From: Scenedesmus sp. PABB004
Taxonomy: Eukaryota
DNA: 64,000 bases
Direction: 5' to 3'
Assembly: GCA_014905635.1 (NCBI GenBank)
Contig: JABVCE010000016.1
Span: 744,001 to 808,000, forward strand
The notes under the pieces are model-generated. The model saw only the letters and a list, made by a program, of their open reading frames with translations. It was not told where the DNA came from and did no database searches. The position numbers and the translations under genes are program-made. Position 1 is the first letter of the stretch. Every line of letters begins with the position of its first letter. Shown piece by piece: positions 17,300 to 58,390 of the stretch.

Positions 17300-18056
17300 T
17301 CAGGTCTTGCGGTTGAAGCGGTCGATGCCCTGCCAGGGCGGCGCACGGCAGGCGGCGGCGGGTGGGCGCCGTCGGGGCGGGGGCGCGAGGGGTGCAGCAG
17401 CGCGCTCACGACAAGCCGCCCCCCGGCCGCGCCGTGCACCGCCGCACCGCCGCGCCGTGCACCGCCTGGTCGCCCTGGCCCGCGCCTGGGCCCGTGTGGC
17501 TGCGGTCGTACTGCGGGGCCTTGTCCTGCCGCGCCTGGGCCTCCATGCGCATCAGCTGCGGCGGCCGCACGGCGCGCCGCGGTCGGGCGGGCGGCGCGCA
17601 GCCGGCATCGCGCAGCCGCTGCGCACGCCGCGCGCTGGGCCGCGCGCTGGGCCGCGCGCACGTGCTTCTCGTCGGCGCTGGGCGCGGCGCCGTGCTCGCC
17701 CCGCAGCTCGTCTGGCAGCTCGCTCGGGCGCTGCTGTGTTTCGTGGGCGAGCCGGACGCCGATCGCGCGCGTCGCGCCCAGGCCGCGCGTCGCCTCGGCG
17801 CCGTGCTGCCGTCCTCGCTCTCGTGGATGGCGTCAACCAGCTCCTGGGGCGGCTTGAGCTCCCGCGTCGCCTTCTGCGCGCGGCACAGCGTGCGGCGCGC
17901 GCAGCAGCGGCGGCGGCGGCGGCGGCGGCGGGGCCTTGCGCTGCGATCGCGCAGCACCGGCCGGCGCCAGCGCTGGGCGAGGCTAGCACTGAGCGGGGCT
18001 GGCGTGGGGCAGCGCGCCCCGCGCGGGCGACGGCGCGGCCGCTGCGCGCGCACCAT
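17300..18056 (-). CDS. Hypothetical small hydrophilic protein, 4 exons
   Basis: ATG directly followed by a GT donor (18053); exons KATRELKPPQELVDAIHESEDG..ADEKH, LMRMEAQARQDKAPQYDRSH.., GIDRFNRKT*. Requires one extra base near 17810. Confidence 0.5.
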
Positions 18057-18190
18057 CGCGGCGGGCGGGCGTGGGCGGGCGCGGCGGCGGTCCGCGATCG
18101 CGTCGGCGGCGGTGTCTGCGGCGGCGGGGCTGCTCGCGGCGCCATCCGTGCGCTGAGGGGTCGCGCGCGGTTTTGCGCCATACCCCCGCG

Positions 18191-19433
18191 TCACGCCCCG
18201 CCCGCGCGCAGCGCCGCCACCGCCCGCCGCGCGGCGTGGCCGCGGAACGCCGCCTGCACGGTCGTCGCGGCCGCGCCGCGCCGCGCGTCCGCCCCGAGCG
18301 GCTCCTCTGGCGGCGCCGCCGCTGCTGCGCCGCCGTGCCCGCCGCTGCCGCCCGCCGCGCTCGCCGCGCTCGCCGCGGACGCTGCGCTCGCGGCCTTGGC
18401 CTCCGCCGCCGCGCCCGCCGCCGCCGCCTGCGCCGCCAGCGCCGCCGCGGCGGCGGGGTCGAGCTGCGTGTGGGGGCGGTTGGGGTTGTTGTCGAGCAGC
18501 CAGCTCCCCAGGAACGCCACGGCGGCGAGGCGGTCGCTCGTGGGCTTCTCCCGCGCGAGCGCGGTCAGCGCCTTGACCAGCGTCGGCTGCAGCCGCGCCG
18601 CAATGTACTCCTGCGCGGCGGCGGGGCGCGCGCCACGGGTGAGGCGGCCGGCGCCGCCGGGGCAGGGCGCGCGCCGGGCAGCGCGCCGGCGTGCGCGCGC
18701 GCGCGCGCCTGCGCCGCGGCCGCGTCGGCGGCCGCGCCCGCGAGCTGCAGCTTGGGGAAGAGCAGCCGTATCTCGCGCGCCGCGGCCTCGGCGCTGTCCG
18801 AGCCGTGCACCGCGTTGCGCGTGGCGTCGCTGCCGTAGAGGGCGCGCAGGCTGCGGCACGCAGGGGCGCGCGGGGGTGGCGGTGGCGCCCGCGCCGCCGC
18901 CCCGGCTGCGCGCCCACCCCACACCAGCGCGCCCGGCGGCCGCGGCGGGCGCACCTCTTGGGCGCCGCGAGGCGCGCGTCGAGCACGCTGGTCGGGCCAG
19001 CCAGCTCGCGCCAGGCGGCGACCGCGCCGGCGCGTGCGAGCACCATCGCCACAGCCGGCCCGCCGGTCATGAACTCCACCAGGCCAGCGAAGAAGGGCTT
19101 GCCGGCGTGCTCGGAGTAAAACGCCTCCGCGAGGCGCGGCGGCATCTGTCGCGCAGCAGCGGCGCGCGGCGCGTGCGGTGCGGCGGGCGTGAGGCGCGCG
19201 GCGGGGTGTGGCGGGGGGTCCCAGTCGGCTGGCTCGCTCGAGTGCCACTGGCAGCTGCCTGGGCGCCCCGTGCCGCCCACAGGCGCGCCAGCCAGCGCCC
19301 GGGCGCGCGCGCTCGCCTGCAGCTGCCGCCGCGCCAGCACGATGAAGCCCGCCATCTCCGCGAGCTGCGTGATCTCCTGCGCCTTTCCCGCGGCCACGGC
19401 GTCGGGCTTCACGATGGCGAGCGTGTACTCCAT
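18191..19433 (-). CDS. RSP23: Nucleoside diphosphate kinase NDK5/NME5 type (radial spoke protein 23-like) with Dpy-30 and IQ motifs
   Basis: TLAIVKPDAV, AFYSEHAGKPFF, SLRALYGSDATRNAVHGSDS, Dpy-30-like EYIAARLQPTLVKALTALAREKP, IQ motif ATTVQAAFRGHAARR. Confidence 0.85.
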
Positions 19434-19569
19434 GGCGGGGGCCGCTGCTGCGCAGCGTTGACCGCGCGACCGCGGCGCAGCCGTGCGCTCCGGGTGCACG
19501 GAGTGCGGCCGCTTGCGCTCGGCCCGCCGCCGGTCGCAGCACGAGCGCGGGCGGCGGGCACGCCCGACG

Positions 19570-22500
19570 TTACAGCGGCTCTGCGCGGCGCGCCCCGGCA
19601 GCGGCGACGCCGTGCCGCGGCGGCCGCCACACGCGCGCGCGCACCGCGTCCGCGTCCAGCGCGCCGCCCCGCGCAAGCAGCACGCCATCCAGCAGGCTGC
19701 GCGGCGCGCCCGGGTCGGGCGGCAGGCCGCACCAGCCGCGCAGCGCCGCGACGAGCTCGTCGCCGCCGCAGCCCGCGTGCAGGCCCATCGCCGCCGCCGC
19801 GGCCGCGCGCAGCCCGGCGGACCGCTCGGCGGCGCCGTCGGCGTCGTCTGCCTCGGCGAGCGGCGCAAACACGCCGTCGCACAGCGCCGCCGCGACGCAC
19901 CAGGCGGTGAGGTAGCAATGGTATGTCCCGGCATGTGCAGCCATGACCGGCAGTAGCGCGAGCTGCGGGGCGCGCGCAGCGAACGGCGCCCGCCGCAGCG
20001 GTCAACGGTGCATCCAGCTGAGCAGCAGCGCCAGCGGCGGCGGCGCGCAGCGGCAGCCCCGCGCGGCGCTGCCGGCGCGCACCTCGCGCAGGCTGCCGCC
20101 CGCCGCCACGGCGCCCGGCAGCCCCCCGACGGCGCGCCACGCGGCGCGCCAGTGGTCGCTGCAGGCGGCGGCGCCCAGCTCCCCAAGCGCCTGCTCCGCC
20201 AGCCCCGTCGCGACGCGGCCAGCGAGCGCGAGCGCGCTTGCGTAGCGCGCCCGATACCAGTCCGCCAGCGCGCGCGCGAGCTCGTCCGGCAGCGGCGCCC
20301 CGCTGGGCCCAGCGTGGCGGCAGACGCGCGCGAGCACGGCCGGCCGCGTCAGCAGGCACTCCATGAGCTGCGACGGCACCTCCAGCAGGTCGGGCGGCAG
20401 AAAGCGCCCCGACAGGTGCGCGGCGGGCTGCCTGCGTCGGCCCGGCCGGCGCGGGCGCCGGGGCGTCAGCGCGCGCAGCGCGCACGGCAGCCGGGCAGGC
20501 CCGGCAGAGCTGCGGGGGTCACCTGCTGCTGAGGATGAGGTGCAAAGCGTGGCCCATCTCGTGCCCCAGCTCCCACAGCTGCGCGACTGACAGCACACCC
20601 ACACTGCCGCCGCCGCCGCTGGCCGGCTCCGCCTCGTCCAGCGGCCCCTGCTCCTGCAGCAGCCGCTGGCCCGCGCCGGCGTCACCGGCGCCGGCGCTGC
20701 CGCCGAGGCGCCGCCCCGAGATGCCCACCGCGACCACCGGCGCGCCGCCGCACCGCTCCAGCAGCGCCGCCTGCGCCGCGGGCGGCAGCTCCGCCCAGCC
20801 GCGCGCATCGGGCGGCGCTGCGACCGGCGGCGGGCCCCCTGGCTCCGACGCGCGGGTCAAGCGAAGCTGGCGCGCGCCGTAGCCGCCACCGACATCCACG
20901 TACGCCACGCCCAGCAGCTGCAGGCCAGTGCCGCCGCCGCCACCGCCGCCGCCGCCGTCCGCGCCCTGCTGCCGCCGCACGACCATGGCGACGGCCACGT
21001 CGGCGCGCCACGTCTCTGCCTCGACCGCGGGGCGCAGCATCAGCTCGCACCCCAGCGTGCGCTGAAGCAGGTCGCTGAGGCCGGACAGCACGCCGCCGAG
21101 CGTGAGGTGCTCCGCCAGGCGCGGGTCGCGCAGCGGCTGCAGCAGCGGCGCGCGTGCGCGGTTCGCCAGCCAGTCCCAGTCCCAGGGGCCGTGCTGCGGC
21201 TCCTGCTGCTCCAGCTGCTGCTCCTGCTGCTGCTCCTGCTCCAGCTCCTGCAGCTGCTCCTGCTCCTGCTCCTGCTGCCGCTTCTGCTGCTGCTCGTCCG
21301 GCTGAGGCAGCTGCCGCAGAACCCACGCCACCTCCTCGTCTGCCAGCGGCTGCAGGGCGGCCGCCAGCTGGAGCAGGAAGTCCACGGGGGTGCTGCTCGC
21401 CCCACCACCGCCGCTGCCGTCGCTGTGCGCGTCGCCGTCGTCGCCGTCGGCGCCGGACCCGGGCGCCGCAAAGGCAGCGGTCAGGCGCTGTGATGTCTGC
21501 GCCAGGTAGCTGGCATGCCCCGCCAGCCGCGCCTGCTGCTGCCGGCAGTTGGCGAGCGCGCCGAGCAGCCGCGCCGCCTCGGCGAGGCGCGGGCGGAGGG
21601 CCTGCAGGTACGCCGCGCGCCGCACGCGGCCGTCGCCGCAGCGCTGCAGCAGCTGCTCCAGCACGCCCCGCGTCACCTGCACCACGTGAGTCGTCGAAGG
21701 CGCGGCGCCGCCGTCCGCTGCCCCCGCCCCTGCCGGCTGCTGCTCCGCCAGCAGCACGGCCAGCGGCGCGGGCAGCTCCAGCGGCACTGGGGCGGCGACG
21801 GACGGTGGCAGGGGCAGCGGCGCGGCCGTCAGCAGGGCTGCGCGGCGCCGCACGCCCCCGCGCGGCACGCCCCCGCGCGGCACGGCGCGGCGCGGCGCGG
21901 CGCGCACCCGGCCGGCGCAGCGCGTCGTCGATCGCGGCGATCGTGGCGGCCTCCCGCGCGCGCAGCGCCGCGAGCGCCTGCGCGTTGCTGTCGGGCGCCT
22001 CCAGCGCGGCGAGCCAGTCCAGCGAGTCGCGCGGCACGTAGCGCGCGTACGCCGCCGCGAGCACGCCGCACAGGCGCAGCTGCTGCGCGCGCGACAGGCC
22101 GTCGCCCGCGCCGTCGTCGCCGGCGGCGGCGCCGCGCTGCGCCTGCTGGCGCAGGCGCTCGCGCGCGCCGGCCAGGCGCGCCGCCGCGGCCTTGCTGCCG
22201 CACAGGTGCGCCTCGTACTTGGCGCAGTCGGCCGCCACCTGGGCCGCCGCCGCCGCCCACGCGGGGTCGGCGTGGCACTGCGAGACGTGCACCGCGAGCG
22301 CGCGCGCGCTGCGCAGCTCCGCGAGCGCCGCGTCGAGCGCCGCCAGCAGGCGGCCCGGGCTGCTCGTGCGCAGCGCGGCGCCCCACGCCGCCTCCAGGCG
22401 CGGCCGCACGGCGCCGCGCCAGTGGCGGTCGTACGCGTCCGGCGCGCCGACGCCGGGCAGGCAGAGCAGGCCGGGCGGGCGCGGCGCCTGCTGCTGCGCG

Positions 22501-22628
22501 GCCCGCGGCGGCGCAGCGGCAGCGGCGGCCGCCACGCGCCGCGCGGCGCGGCACGGCGGCTGCGCGCGCACCGCAGCGCGCCGCCGGGCGCACCGCGTCG
22601 CCGGCCGCGGCGCGGCGGGCGCGTGCAT
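19570..22628 (-). CDS. M3-family zinc metallopeptidase (mitochondrial intermediate peptidase/oligopeptidase-like), divergent
   Basis: LGHEMGHALH (HExxH), DLLEVPSQLME (third ligand Glu), GTYHCYL; Arg/Ala-rich N-terminus resembling a transit peptide; 3 GT-AG introns. Confidence 0.8.
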
Positions 22629-23146
22629 CGCCCGCCCCCGCCGCCCGCCGGGGGCGAGAGCGGCAGCAGCGGCGCCCGCCGCAGGCGAGCGCGGCGCAGC
22701 GGCGGCCGGGCGGCCGCGCCGGCGAGGCGGCGGCAGCGGTACTTGGCGGCGGGTCTGGCGACGCCGGCAGCGGCGGCGGCGGCAACGGGCGTCAAAGCAG
22801 CGGCGCTCGTTGAAGCGCCGCGGCGCAGCGGACCGTCGGGGCGCCAAGTGCGAACCGCCCGCACTCGCTTGCCCACGCACAGACGCGCCACCCCGCCGTC
22901 CGCCGCCCCCAGACTCGCCTGCAGGCGTGCTGCCTCGCCATCAGCGCTCCCCTCCCAGCTGGGCGCGGTCTGGGCCGAGCCGCGTCGCGTGCGAGTCCGC
23001 ACAGACACTGCGCATACCGTGCGCCGGTTGCAGCGCCAGGCAGGGCACAGCCAGGGCGACAGCAGCAGCAGCAGCAGACCCGGCGCCGCTGCCGCCGCGA
23101 TCGCGCGCGCCGGCCGCGGGCGTCGCGCGGCCGCCCGCCGGGCGCC

Positions 23147-23933
23147 ATGTCTAAGGAGGAGGAGCTGTCGGACAGCACGGGCGTCGCGCACATGGTCGGC
23201 GGTGCGTGGCGGCGCAGCCGGCTGCGCGGCGTCGACCGCGCCCCCGCCTCCACCCGCCCACGCCCACGCCCGCCCCCGCCGGCTCGCCGCGCCGCGGCGC
23301 CGCAGGCGTGGTGAAGGTCATCACCAACGACGGCCGCGTGGTCAAGGCACGCGCGCGCGCGCGCAACAGCGGCCCCGGCAGCGCGGCGCGTCGCGGCGCC
23401 CGGCCGGCCGCCGACGCGCGCGCTCGCCCTCGCGCCCTTGCCCCCCTTGCCCCCTTGCGCAGGGCGTGCTGCGGGGGTACGACCAGACCAATAATGTCAT
23501 CATCGAGGACTGCTGCGAGCTCGTGTTCAGCACCACGGTGCGGCGGCCCCGCGGAGCGAGCGAGCCCGCCGACGCGCGGCCCCGACCGCGCCAGCTGCGC
23601 GCAGCGCCGCCCACCTGCCTCTCCCGCGCGCGCCGCTCCCGCGTGCGCCGCAGGCGGGCGTGCAGCTGGCTGAGATGGGACTGCAGGTCATCCGCGGCAG
23701 CAACGTGTGAGCGGCGCGGGCGGCGCCGCGGGCGCGGGCGCCGCGCGCGGGCGCCGCGCGCGGGCGCCGCGCTGCGACCCTCACGCGCCGCGCCCCGCCC
23801 GCCGCCGCTGCCGCCTGCCGCCGCGCGCGTGGGCGGGGGCAGCGCCGTGATCGGCGAGGTGGACGAGGAGGCGTACGAGGCCATCGACCTGGACCAGCTG
23901 CGCGCGGCGCCGCTCAAGCCCATCGCGCACTAG
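23147..23933 (+). CDS. LSM8: Sm-like protein LSm8, 5 exons
   Basis: VKVITNDGRVVK|GVLRGYDQTNNVII, GLQVIRGSNVAVIGEVDEE, LRAAPLKPIAH. Confidence 0.92.
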
Positions 23934-24016
23934 CGGGCCCGCCCGCCGCGCGTGCGGGCCTCCTGGGTTTGCAACCGCCCCCTCCCCCCCTTCCCGCGCC
24001 TCGCTCGCCCGCCCGC

Positions 24017-24405
24017 TCACTCGCGCGCCGCGGCGGCCTCCTCCCGCACGCCCAGCAGCGGCGCCGGCGCGCAGGGCCCGCCCGCGTCGGCCGCGCCGTC
24101 GCCCGGCGCCGGCAGCACGTCGACCGGCCCCGCCTCGGCCGCCTCGAGCTCGGTCGCCGTCAGCTCGCCGACCGCGCGCCCCAGCAGCGCGCCCGCCGCC
24201 GCCGCGGCGACCACGGGCGCCGCGCCGCCTGCGTGCGCCGGCCGCGCGTGCTGAGCGGCGAGCGGCGCCGGCCGGCCGCGGCGCTGCGGGCGGGCGCACC
24301 GAGGACCGCGCCCGCCGCCAGGGCTCCGCCGGCCGCGCCCGCGAGCGTGCCGGCCGCCTTGGCCGCGCCGCCCTCCGCGCCCGGCTGCTGCTGCTCCGCC
24401 GACAT
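24017..24405 (-). CDS. Small glycine-zipper-like protein A (105 aa, 2 exons)
   Basis: gccATG at 24405; intron 24299-24229 (GT-AG); AAGTLAGAAGGALAAGAVLGGAAPVVAAAAAGALLGRAVG followed by an acidic tail. Confidence 0.6.
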
Positions 24406-24510
24406 GGCCGCGGGCGTGGGAGGGCGTGACGGGCTGGGGGCGTGATGGCGGGCGGCTGTGACGCGATCGCGGGCCGGCGGGAGCTCGTCGCCGCGCGGCG
24501 CGGCGGGCGG

Positions 24511-24527
24511 CGTCATGACTCATGACG
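24511..24527. promoter_or_regulatory. 17-bp palindrome CGTCATGACTCATGACG containing the AP-1/GCN4-type bZIP site ATGACTCAT
   Basis: Perfect 8-bp arms around the central C at 24519, in the divergent intergenic region. Confidence 0.6.
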
Positions 24528-24634
24528 ACCGGCACTCAAGCTGCCTCTCCCCGTCTCGATTAGGCCCTTCCCCCCGTCCCGCGGGTCCCCCGCCCACACA
24601 CCCGAGCTCTGGCCGCAACGAACGAACGACCGCG

Positions 24635-24982
24635 ATGGCCGACCCGCGCTCCGACGACGCGCGGCGCGGCATTCCCGCGATCGACCCAGCCGCAGCGGCG
24701 CAGGCGGGGGGCGCGGGCCGCGCGCAGGGCGCGGGCGCGGGCACCGCCTCGGGCGCCGCCCTCGGCGGCGCCGTCGGCGCGGCGGGCGGGCCCGCGGGCG
24801 CGGCGCTCGGCGCGGCGGCGGGCGGGCTCGCCGGCGGCGTCGCGGGCACGGTCGTCGCCGAGCAGCGCGGCGTGGGCGGGCAGGCGCTGTCGATGGGCGC
24901 GGTGCTCGAGCACGCGTCGGGCGAGCCCGCGGGCAGCCCCGCCACCGCCGGCGCGGCCACGGTCGGCGGCGGCGGCGCGTGA
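24635..24982 (+). CDS. Small glycine-zipper protein B (115 aa, intronless)
   Basis: gcgATGG start; GAGAGTASGAALGGAVGAAGGPAGAALGAAAGGLAGGVAG (GxxxG repeats); TGTAA 19 nt after the stop. Confidence 0.7.
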   Translation: MADPRSDDARRGIPAIDPAAAAQAGGAGRAQGAGAGTASGAALGGAVGAAGGPAGAALGAAAGGLAGGVAGTVVAEQRGVGGQALSMGAVLEHASGEPAGSPATAGAATVGGGGA

Positions 24983-25000
24983 TGCGGGCGTTCGGAGGAG

Positions 25001-25037
25001 TGTAATCGGCACCCGCGCGCGGCCGTGTCCGCTTACA
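25001..25037. promoter_or_regulatory. Facing TGTAA poly(A) signals: + at 25001 (glycine-zipper B) and - at 25033-25037 (RPL32)
   Basis: tgtaa and ttaca between two convergent genes. Confidence 0.65.
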
Positions 25038-25118
25038 CAACGACACCCCGCCCGCGCGCGGGCGGCAGCGCCTGCTGCCGCCGCGTGGCACGGGCGCGCG
25101 CGTGCGCGCGCGCGGCGC

Positions 25119-26198
25119 CTACTCGTCCTCCTGGCTGCGCAGCTTGGCGGCCTTGTTGGTGACCGCGATGTTGAGCTGCGTCGCGCGCTCGACAATCTCC
25201 TTGCGCTTGCGCGCCGACACGTCGTGCGCGACCTCGGCGCAGAAGACGCGGTTGTGCATCAGCAGCATCTCCAGGTCCTTCACGTTGTGCACCAGCACCT
25301 GCGCAAGCGGCCGCGCCCCCCGCCGCGGCGATATCAGCGGTCAGCGCTCAGCGCAGGCAGCGGTCGGCGCGCGGTCGCGGTCGCGGTCGTGCCGCGCCGC
25401 GCCGCCACGGCGGGGCCGCCGCCGCCGCGCGCCCGCCCGCCCGCCCGCGGCGCGCACCTTCTTGAAGCCGTTGGGCAGCACGTGGCGGTCCTTCTTGTTG
25501 GTGGCGTAGCCGATGTTGGGCATCTTGATGGCGCCCTTGAACTTCCTGCGAGGCCGCGGCGGCGGCGCGGCGCGGCGCGGTCGGCGCGGCGCGGCCGGCG
25601 GCCGCGGGCCGCGCGGGCTGCCGCCGCCCCGCCGCCGACGGCCCGCTGCTGGCTGGCAGCCGCCGCGAGCCCCGCTCTGATGCGAGTCGCGCGCCGGTGC
25701 CGCCGCGCGCCGCTGCCGCCGGTCGCCGCTGCCGCCGGTCGCCGCTGCCGCTTGCCCTCGCCGACCGCGCGCTGCGCCGCTCGCTGCTGCTGCTGCGCGC
25801 TGCTGCCGCCGCTCGCTGCTGCCGCTCGAGGGCTGCCGCCGCCACAGCTGCCAGCACGGCTGCTGCGCCTGCCGTTGCAGTCGCCACCGCTGCGGCCGCT
25901 GCCGCGGCCACTGCTGCCGCCGTCGCCGCCGCTGCCGCCGCCGCTGCGCGGCCTGCCGCCGCGGCCTGCTGCGCGTCGTCGCCCGCTGCCCCTCCCCCCT
26001 CCACCACCGCCACCGTGAGCCCCTGCTGCAGCCGCAGGAGGCCGCCTGCGCCGCGGCCGCGCACCTGCGCACGCGGCCATCGATACCCTTCGGGCGCCTC
26101 CAGCTGGGCTTGACGCAGAGCTTCCTGTCGCTCTGGTGGCGGTCGAAGTGCTTCTTGCGCTTCACCTCCTTCTTCCGCTTCACCAGCGGCTGCACCAT
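25119..26198 (-). CDS. RPL32: 60S ribosomal protein L32 (eL32), 3 coding exons
   Basis: [74 protein letters not shown]. Confidence 0.97.
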
Positions 26199-33923: not shown

Positions 33924-34789
33924 TCACTCCATGACCACCTTGCCGCCCACTGCAGGCGGCGGCGGCAGCGGCAGCGGGGTGAGCGCAGGTGCGCGGGCGC
34001 CGCAGCAGCGGCCACGGCCGCGGCGGCAGCAGCGTGGCGGCGGCCAGGGCGCGCACCTGCTTCTAGCTGCTTCTGCATCGCCTCCGCGTCCGCCTTGCTC
34101 ACGCCGGTCTTGATGACCACGGGCGCCTTCTCGACCTGCGGAGGAGCGCGCGCAGCGCGCGGCGGCGGTGAGGCCGGCCCGCGTGAGGCCGCGCAGCCGG
34201 CGGCAGCACTGCGCCGCGCCGCCCGCCCGTCCCCCGAGCGCGCCCCGCCCCTCCTCCTCCTCCTCCTCCGCCGCCGCCGCGCCCGCGCGCCGCCGCGCGC
34301 GCGCGCGCGCCGCGGGCGCACCAGCTCCTTGGCCTCCTTGAGGCCCAGCGCCGTGAGCGCGCGGATCTCCTTGATGACCTTGATCTTGCCCTCCGGCGTG
34401 AAGGACTCCAGCTTGACGTCAAACTCGGTCTTCTCCTTGGCCGGCGGCGCCGCGTCGGCCTCGGGCGCGGCGCCGGCCGCCGGCGGCGGCGCCGCCATCG
34501 CGGCGGCCATCATCGGCACCGCCGCGCCGCGCGGCACGCCGAGCTTTTCCCGCAGCAGGTTGCTGAGCTGGCTGCACTCCAGCACGCTCAGGGACATGAT
34601 GTCCTGGGCCAGCTGCTGCACGCGCTCGCCCGGCGCCTCGGCGTCGTCCGCTGGGTGATCACCCGCCGCCGCCGCGAGCGCTCTGCTGCCCCCGCCCCCC
34701 AGCAGGCGCGCGCAGGCACCGCCGGGCGCGCCCGGCGCCCAGGCCGCCTGCTGCGCGGCACGCGCGGCCGCCAGCAGCGCGAGCCGCAT
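33924..34789 (-). CDS. Organellar (probably mitochondrial) ribosomal protein L7/L12 (bL12), 3 exons
   Basis: Transit-like N-terminus, [50 protein letters not shown]. Confidence 0.93.
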
Positions 34790-58065: not shown

Positions 58066-58390
58066 ATGATGTGCATCGAGATCGGGAGCAACAACCCGTG
58101 CCGGTGCGAGACCGTTGCCGCAGCGCGCGGGAGCTGCGGCTCGCAGCTCCCGCGCGGGAGCTGCGAGCCGCAGCGCGCGCGGCACGCGCGACCAACGGCC
58201 CCCGCCCGCCCGCGCGCGCAGCTGCAAGGTTCTCGGCCCGACGCTGGGCCTGGTCGTCGGCGCCGTCGCCGCGGTCTTCGCGTGGCCGGCAGGGGTCCTG
58301 GTGTGGGTGTGCTCCCGCTCCGCCTCGCGCCGCGCGTTCGGCCTGCCCTACGAGACCTACGTCGGCGTGAAGAGGGGCATCCCGATCTGA
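58066..58390 (+). CDS. Small 68-aa Cys-containing hydrophobic peptide (possibly TAXIMIN-like), 2 exons
   Basis: Exons 58066-58103 and 58222-58390 join in frame: MMCIEIGSNNPCRCKVLGPTLGLVVGAVAAVFAWPAGVLVWVCSRSASRRAFGLPYETYVGVKRGIPI, with G/C-ending codon usage typical of the real exons here. Confidence 0.75.
58124..58174. repeat. Overlapping inverted repeats (15-bp stem hairpin and 42-bp perfect palindrome) inside an intron
   Basis: 58124-58138 pairs with 58142-58156; 58133-58153 is the exact reverse complement of 58154-58174. Confidence 0.9.

Follow-up and report, generated by a model that had tools for sequence, protein, structure and literature searches.

Proteins with a glycine-zipper hairpin are, to our knowledge, familiar from bacteria but have hardly been studied in algae. 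The closest described systems include SlyB, whose hairpin is presumably embedded in lipid, and CdzC/CdzD, which we take to be a two-peptide glycine-zipper bacteriocin of Caulobacter. On the regulatory side, a passage of PMC10163045 reports binding of TGACTCA and of TGAC half-sites in Arabidopsis by heterodimers of the basic leucine zipper (bZIP) protein bZIP53 and by homodimers of bZIP1/44 (groups C/S1). Here, we analyze a locus that can be compared with both kinds of system, located in a 64,000-nucleotide stretch of the green alga Scenedesmus sp. PABB004 (GenBank assembly GCA_014905635.1, contig JABVCE010000016.1, positions 744,001 to 808,000 of the forward strand; the whole stretch is referred to as the window, and all positions are counted within it). 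The DNA is nuclear and eukaryotic, with spliced genes and a G+C content of ~80% throughout. Two small open reading frames (ORFs), termed gene A and gene B, diverge from a spacer with a palindrome at its centre. Gene B adds a new member to a conserved, uncharacterised algal family, gene A is a plausible orphan partner, and the central palindrome could well be a bZIP site common to both. The overall explanation that we favour, at a likelihood somewhat short of even, sees the locus as two small genes transcribed divergently in this GC-rich green-algal nuclear genome, with the palindrome as their common control site. The elements of the pair are the following:

23969-23974, no strand: palindromic TTGCAA, between the stop codons of LSM8 and gene A
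24017-24228, minus strand: gene A exon 2 (predicted), with the second hairpin helix, an acidic Ala/Pro-rich tail and the stop codon
24229-24299, minus strand: gene A intron (predicted), 71 nucleotides, phase 1, GT..AG, donor G/GTGCGC and acceptor CGCAG/G (the stroke marks the junction)
24300-24405, minus strand: gene A exon 1 (predicted), 35 codons plus 1 nucleotide, with the first half of the Gly/Ala hairpin
24406-24634, no strand: spacer, 229 nucleotides, presumed to hold a bidirectional promoter and both 5' leaders
24511-24527, no strand: perfect 17-nucleotide palindrome CGTCATGACTCATGACG, with a TGACTCA core and CGTCA/TGACG flanks, candidate common bZIP site
24635-24982, plus strand: gene B, intronless, 115 amino acids plus stop (as translated)
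25001-25005, plus strand: TGTAA, chlorophyte poly(A) signal, 19 nucleotides past the gene B stop

An earlier note on this DNA, made from the sequence alone, had drawn attention to the pair, and its coordinates for both frames (105 and 115 amino acids), its spacer length, its palindrome and the distances from the palindrome to the two start codons were all correct.

Gene B and its family in the Sphaeropleales

That gene B is real and belongs to a conserved family is nearly certain. A phmmer search with its product returned 4 proteins at E<=0.01, the best being a hypothetical protein of Scenedesmus sp. NREL 46B-D3 (62% identity, 84% query coverage, E 9.6e-17), and a profile search against 1.84 billion representatives yielded 261 matches at E<=0.001, including 14 at E<=1e-10. 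Named members are Cz11g16110 of Chromochloris zofingiensis, Rsub_04252 of Raphidocelis subcapitata (carried in UniRef as 'Glycine zipper domain-containing protein'), MNEG_1734 of Monoraphidium neglectum and COO60DRAFT_1629551 of Scenedesmus; every named member so far comes from Sphaeropleales. The family proteins are 105-145 amino acids long, show 35-62% identity to gene B and share three blocks, i.e., an N-terminal G(I/L)PAxDPA(A), a Gly/Ala zipper around a GGP turn, with invariant glycines at each fourth residue, and a final (E/Q)RGPxGxAxDM. An 11-sequence family alignment contains 13 invariant columns, including the zipper glycines (G36, G40, G44, G48, G52, G59, G67 and G71), R78 and M87. 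Gene B itself carries GIPAIDPAA and the GGP turn and matches the family hidden Markov model (HMM) over its full length with 103.5 bits; its third block is degraded (RGV..G..L.M vs. RGP.G.A.DM in the family). Just 4 of the 46 A/T bases in its reading frame fall at codon position 3. The TGTAA that follows its stop codon is a pentamer found 12 times in the window vs. 3.2 expected (about four-fold; none of 100 shuffles attained 12), and UGUAA is the major poly(A) signal of Chlamydomonas according to a passage of PMC4025486. TGTAA lies just beyond the stop codons where this was checked (gene B and the neighbouring RPL32) and is a handy gene-end marker in this GC-rich genome.

The GxxxG register of gene B goes beyond what its composition provides, with 9 occurrences of GxxxGxxxG vs. 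1.9 in shuffles of the same protein (fraction at or above the observed count 0.0005, 2000 shuffles). Conservation of the family in lower-GC algae excludes GC bias as the cause for gene B; in particular, the Chromochloris member Cz11g16110 retains the zipper with only 16% Ala and 20% Gly, and the zipper is therefore no by-product of GC content. Many relatives on genomic contigs end directly after GAA(L/F)G, which indicates a conserved intron at this point; unlike many of these relatives, the copy in the window has no intron.

Other searches delimit the family. A word-indexed search with a 14-sequence alignment gave 14 matches, described as 13 family members or fragments with 2 bacterial-type zipper proteins counted therein, and no further upstream-extended ORF. 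The family alignment matched 599 stretches in a metagenome scan, none of them confirmed, and the back-translated pattern GIPA(I/V)DPA hit 120 metagenomic loci, none of which gave an HMM match to the family at E<=1e-3; the motif there is part of other proteins, e.g., sulfite-oxidase-like ones. A literature search for the four family gene identifiers found no mentions in papers (supplementary tables being outside its reach), and a search for glycine zippers in Chlamydomonas gave unrelated work only. Overall, the family is conserved and already databased in four Sphaeropleales genomes, and its function is unstudied in the named members.

A formal assignment of gene B to a described zipper family is opposed by its score on Pfam Gly-zipper_YMGG, 15.1 bits, which lies below the gathering cut-off of 28.9. 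At the family level, 8 of 11 members touch this Pfam model at E<=1 (best 8e-5) and 6 of 11 touch Gly-zipper_Omp (best 5.8e-4). The family profile also matches solved structures, namely a phage tape-measure protein (E 5.6e-5) and SlyB (7ojf_A, E 0.0022), in both cases within the zipper region only. Language-model neighbours of gene B are bacterial clusters, in which 11-20% carry the same Pfam families (range for the three best family-bearing entries). Judged from its sequence, gene B resembles a glycine-zipper hairpin yet formally fails Pfam membership.

The spacer and its central palindrome

A convergent gene lies on either side of the A and B frames: LSM8 stops at 23933 and RPL32 at 25119. 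Provided that A and B are both genes, the 229-nucleotide spacer must therefore be common to them. The spacer shows no codon periodicity (A/T bases at the three phases 18/15/22, p 0.51). The centre of its palindrome, at 24519, is 114 nucleotides from one ATG, 116 from the other and 1 nucleotide off the spacer midpoint, and the chance of a random 17-mer being equally centred in 229 nucleotides is ~1.4% (our own post hoc arithmetic). A search for CGTCATGACTCATGACG gave a match in none of 100 shuffles. The impression that this palindrome stands out in its GC background was well founded, with only 2 of the 80 window palindromes that have arms of at least 8 nucleotides containing at least 8 A/T bases, against 0.03 expected per window in first-order Markov simulations (the choice of this class being post hoc). 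The second palindrome of this class, at 58133-58174, is a perfect, GC-rich 42-nucleotide one with 21-nucleotide arms, the longest in the window.

Within the 17 nucleotides, ATGACTCAT presents a TGA(C/G)TCA core in a dyad-symmetric context, in agreement with the GCN4-like element of the AP-1 type, the TPA-responsive element (TRE), that had been recognized here; this is the type of site bound by plant C/S1 bZIP dimers in the passage of PMC10163045 cited above. The GC skew changes sign at the palindrome itself, from +0.35 on its left (the A side) to -0.37 on its right (the B side); each leader is thus C-rich on its own sense strand. TGACG occurs three times in ~100 nucleotides (24427, 24459 and 24523), vs. 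55 times on that strand per 64 kilobases (kb). The A-side leader or promoter (24412-24463) holds three spaced GGGCGTG(A) words (CACGCCC on the sense strand of A), two of which include the TGACG copies at 24427 and 24459, 32 nucleotides apart, the TGACG of the palindrome lying 64 nucleotides further. Elsewhere in the window, the sole perfect octamer of the cAMP-responsive element type, TGACGTCA, is found at 34414-34421, ~650 nucleotides past the plus-strand TGTAA (33763) that follows the PP2A-B56 ORFs, and may be located in another promoter.

One relative of gene B offers a lead on conservation of the palindrome. The plus-strand ORF that starts from the ATG inside the palindrome (24515) is in frame with gene B and begins MTHD; in P0023, a family member on a 32-kb metagenome contig, the gene call runs on past the true start for 60 codons upstream and likewise opens with MTHD. 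This start occurs in 1 of 12 upstream-extended family ORFs and in 1 of the 3 reaching at least 40 codons upstream, and a rough estimate of such agreement by chance is ~1e-3. Two points weigh against a regulatory role: this lead is based on four residues of a single protein, with the underlying DNA unseen, and TGACTCA alone is unenriched (2 in the window vs. 1.1 expected). Taking these observations together, we consider the chances that the palindrome is functional to be evenly balanced, and a bZIP protein as its putative binder to be a clearly less than even prospect, a bZIP reader of such a site in a green alga being plausible.

The predicted gene A and the competing explanations

Gene A stands as a predicted gene rather than an observed one, and we consider it moderately probable that it is real. 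Its spliced product would comprise 105 amino acids. The A/T bases favour different phases in the two exons, whose frames are joined by the GT..AG pair 24299/24229, the sole other usable AG giving, in our own reading, a 49-nucleotide intron of the wrong phase. The donor and acceptor words are identical to those in both RPL32 introns, which begin GTGCGC and finish GCAG. A larger minus-strand gene that would include gene A as an exon is excluded by LSM8, which reaches its natural C-terminus at 23933. A role as the 5' exons of the nearby M3 peptidase gene was considered and rejected, LSM8 intervening on the opposite strand, as was a continuous 168-amino-acid ORF from the minus-strand ATG of the palindrome (24523), in which the A/T bases at 24300-24405 would hit the third codon position. 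The tail encoded by exon 2 includes an in-frame 48-nucleotide tandem duplication (24081-24174, minus strand, 2.0 copies, 78% matches), which suggests recent growth of the low-complexity C-terminus.

In a fairly unlikely alternative, only gene B is real, A is a decayed duplicate or non-coding Gly/Ala-like sequence, and the palindrome is an upstream element of B alone or arose by chance. Open frames of ~100 codons are expected at 80% GC (an estimate), and the 64 kb contain 715 six-frame ORFs of at least 25 amino acids. The homologue search with exon 2 produced 62 candidates, none at E<=1, the Atlas search with the same exon gave no usable match, and the Pfam glycine-zipper scan of the A exons gave none. 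Gene A lacks the GIPAxDPA and RGP..DM motifs, and its spliced product scores 1.0 bit on the B-family HMM after bias correction, which does not place it in the family. Its counts of GxxxGxxxG (2 vs. 0.5 in 2000 shuffles, fraction at or above the observed count 0.106) and GxxxG (6 vs. 3.2, fraction 0.06) lie within those of the shuffles, and a zipper excess over composition is therefore not demonstrated. Periodicity in exon 1 is weak (A/T phase counts 4/11/1, p 0.007), and an RPL32 intron reaches the same value in its most periodic stretch (p 0.007). The intron of A lies 7-8 columns off the family intron site in the best alignment, so that an intron common to A and the family is not demonstrated. 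Composition alone does not decide the strand of exon 2; the minus strand is preferred because a plus-strand reading would be ~30% arginine and has no ATG-started ORF of at least 40 amino acids. No TGTAA follows the stop codon of A. A weak case can be made for TTGCAA at 23969-23974 as a UGCAA-type poly(A) signal serving both LSM8 and A, UGCAA being listed among UGUAA-like signals of Chlamydomonas in a passage of PMC4025486; TGCAA is not enriched in the window (33 vs. 51 expected). All of these points count against gene A. In its favour, the 28 A/T bases of exon 2 are concentrated at codon position 2 (23 bases) and avoid position 3 of sense codons altogether (p 2.4e-7), a strength (p 1e-7) attained by 4.1% of 2127 sliding 210-nucleotide windows and absent from the controls (p 0.32 and 0.37 for the RPL32 introns, 0.2 for the proposed A intron, and 0.51 for the spacer). 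The splice sites are canonical and fit the local consensus. Among the 715 ORFs, that of exon 1 comes second only to gene B itself on the B-family HMM (E 0.012, 10.8 bits; next 0.21), and the spliced product outscores 1999 of 2000 shuffles of itself on this HMM. Furthermore, the GC skew is mirror-symmetric about the palindrome, as expected for outward transcription on both sides.

A different origin of the same arrangement, which we judge improbable, would make A and B the arms of an old inverted duplication and the palindrome a leftover, non-regulatory junction. The near-perfect centring between the two ATGs (1 nucleotide off), the greater closeness of the A hairpin to B than that of any other ORF in the window, and the presence of an intron within the zipper of A and of many B relatives would be consistent with such an origin. 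Beyond the 17 nucleotides, however, the spacer arms together with the first 100 coding nucleotides are dissimilar (global score -6 vs. a null of 1.3 +/- 5.9, with 459 of 500 shuffles aligning at least as well), which argues against a recent inverted duplication; the near-equal arms (114 and 116 nucleotides) would be unlikely to persist neutrally if substitutions had erased the similarity, and the MTHD-starting frame in one relative suggests conservation of the core sequence. As to the product of gene B, we give a membrane-embedded or oligomeric hairpin about even odds. The family proteins could, less probably, be soluble or largely disordered Gly/Ala-rich proteins (e.g., stress-protective or aggregation-prone), with the zipper self-associating in solution or on surfaces, a reading that we regard as unlikely. 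Several features weigh towards it and against a membrane hairpin. The most hydrophobic 19-residue stretch of gene B has a Kyte-Doolittle mean of 1.56 (best 19-mer averages of 1.45-1.79 among 9 family members), which is borderline with respect to the threshold for a membrane span. The AlphaFold2 model, a predicted helical hairpin (helices 18-50 and 53-77), is of low quality, including low confidence over the core (mean pLDDT, the predicted local distance difference test score, 54; pTM, the predicted template modelling score, 0.20). The protein has no signal peptide, lipobox or cysteine, and its nearest non-algal sequence neighbours are small bacterial proteins with hydrophilic flanks. Against a soluble state, the conserved GxxxG register and the GGP turn match the Pfam glycine-zipper families and SlyB. 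A complex prediction with four copies of B residues 20-95 scored 0.03 and indicates nothing in either direction.

In the explanation that we favour, i.e., the divergent pair with a common control site, A and B would be transcribed outward from the 229-nucleotide spacer, and a bZIP dimer bound to the TGACTCA core of the central palindrome would switch them jointly. The Gly/Ala-rich core of B may form a helix-turn-helix hairpin with its break at the conserved GGP; this hairpin would reside in or on a membrane, its GxxxG faces packing with copies of itself or with a partner, as in SlyB, and the hydrophilic GIPAxDPAA and RGPxGxAxDM motifs would then lie on the same side of the membrane; the protein has neither a signal nor a transit peptide. 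Gene A would represent a fast-evolving spliced small gene, possibly an old paralogue of B, with a related degenerate hairpin and an acidic tail. The bZIP binding, co-regulation, membrane insertion and oligomerisation in this scheme are inferences. A more specific version appears to us a long shot: A and B would be the two subunits of a lineage-specific, hetero-oligomeric zipper assembly in the membranes of Sphaeropleales, co-induced from a mirror-symmetric promoter when a GCN4-like bZIP that responds to starvation or stress acts at the palindrome.

Setting, significance and comparison with known systems

The Pfam-supported neighbours within ~7 kb are NDK/Dpy-30, peptidase M3, LSM8, RPL32, UVSSA and PP2A-B56:

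~17.4-23.3 kb, minus strand: NDK/Dpy-30 gene and M3 peptidase, Pfam-supported exons
23457-23933, plus strand: LSM8, Sm exon (GVLRGYDQTNNVIIEDCCELVFS) and last exon, stop codon 23931-23933
25119-26198, minus strand: RPL32, with two introns of ~519 and ~157 nucleotides
UVSSA, minus strand: Pfam-supported exons
PP2A-B56, plus strand: Pfam-supported exons

The Sm and last exons of LSM8 match human LSm8 residues 24-49 and 64-96, reaching the C-terminus (E 3.9e-8); LSM8 and gene A are convergent, their stop codons lying 83 nucleotides apart. On the other side, a TGTAA on the RPL32 strand at 25033-25037 puts the 3' ends of B and RPL32 ~30 nucleotides apart. The NDK exons and a Dpy-30 motif occur together at 17409-20348 on the minus strand, a combination that we take to be that of flagellar radial-spoke NDK proteins. 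A PDB search with the long minus-strand ORF at 20522-23317 gave no match, and an Rfam scan of 23500-25500 gave none at E<=1. Four metatranscriptome runs, all from one study and from other organisms, each contain 0.05 of the words, and their reads map to the conserved RPL32 exon only (with many differences) and to short low-complexity scraps; these reads are uninformative on transcription of A or B, and no transcript of A was found.

What emerges is a conserved and compact family, recognizable by clear sequence hallmarks, in algae that produce oil or serve as ecotoxicology models (Scenedesmus, Chromochloris, Monoraphidium and Raphidocelis). The locus also offers a small symmetric promoter with one strong candidate for a bZIP site. 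A functional palindrome would make the 229-nucleotide spacer usable as a minimal promoter, bidirectional and possibly inducible, in the engineering of very GC-rich algae, and the A/B pair would be a simple system for studying the roles of zipper proteins in eukaryotic membranes; if the palindrome has no function, the locus amounts to one more hypothetical small protein beside an orphan ORF. Should the hetero-oligomer reading prove true, the pair would be to eukaryotes what SlyB and other stress-induced zipper proteins are to bacteria.

The earlier note's description of two small glycine-zipper genes has stood for B, with homologues in four Sphaeropleales genera and a GxxxG stretch for which GC bias as the sole cause is excluded; the corresponding claims for A have come down to a predicted gene with no homologue in the exon 2 search and a zipper within composition. 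On the Pfam zipper models, B is a sub-threshold match and A no match. The note did not recognize the module from algae; the B half of it is already databased, under the labels 'hypothetical protein' and 'Glycine zipper domain-containing protein'. The roles that it entertained (pore or toxin, lipid droplet, stress) are speculation.

Among known regulatory elements, the palindrome compares with the GCN4/AP-1 TRE and with the GCN4-like and ACT elements of plant C/S1 factors, ATGACTCAT being a perfect TRE with ACTCAT and TGACG/CGTCA flanks; unlike a single bZIP site, the palindrome is longer, at 17 nucleotides, and its TGACTCA core is not enriched in the window. The likeness to CdzC/CdzD consists in two small glycine-zipper-like products encoded adjacently and is an analogy only: the A/B pair is eukaryotic and divergent, has no secretion leader and has LSM8 and RPL32 as neighbours, and the leader, type I exporter and immunity gene of such a bacteriocin system were not found, with no exporter among the Pfam-supported neighbours within ~7 kb. 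The closest resemblance at the level of protein sequence is that of gene B to the bacterial zipper families Gly-zipper_YMGG (PF13441), Gly-zipper_Omp (PF13488) and Rick_17kDa_Anti (PF05433) and to SlyB (7ojf). Gene B differs from these in being a eukaryotic nuclear gene whose product has no signal peptide, lipobox or cysteine, and the N- and C-terminal motifs of its family are missing from the bacterial ones; the SlyB/Pcp order of a signal peptide and a lipobox cysteine ahead of the zipper is absent from gene B, whose product begins with a hydrophilic, conserved N-terminus and is therefore no SlyB-type lipoprotein. What gene B has in common with them is the GxxxG register, extending over ~45 residues with a central turn, and the profile-level matches to the Pfam zipper families and to SlyB span precisely this zipper stretch.

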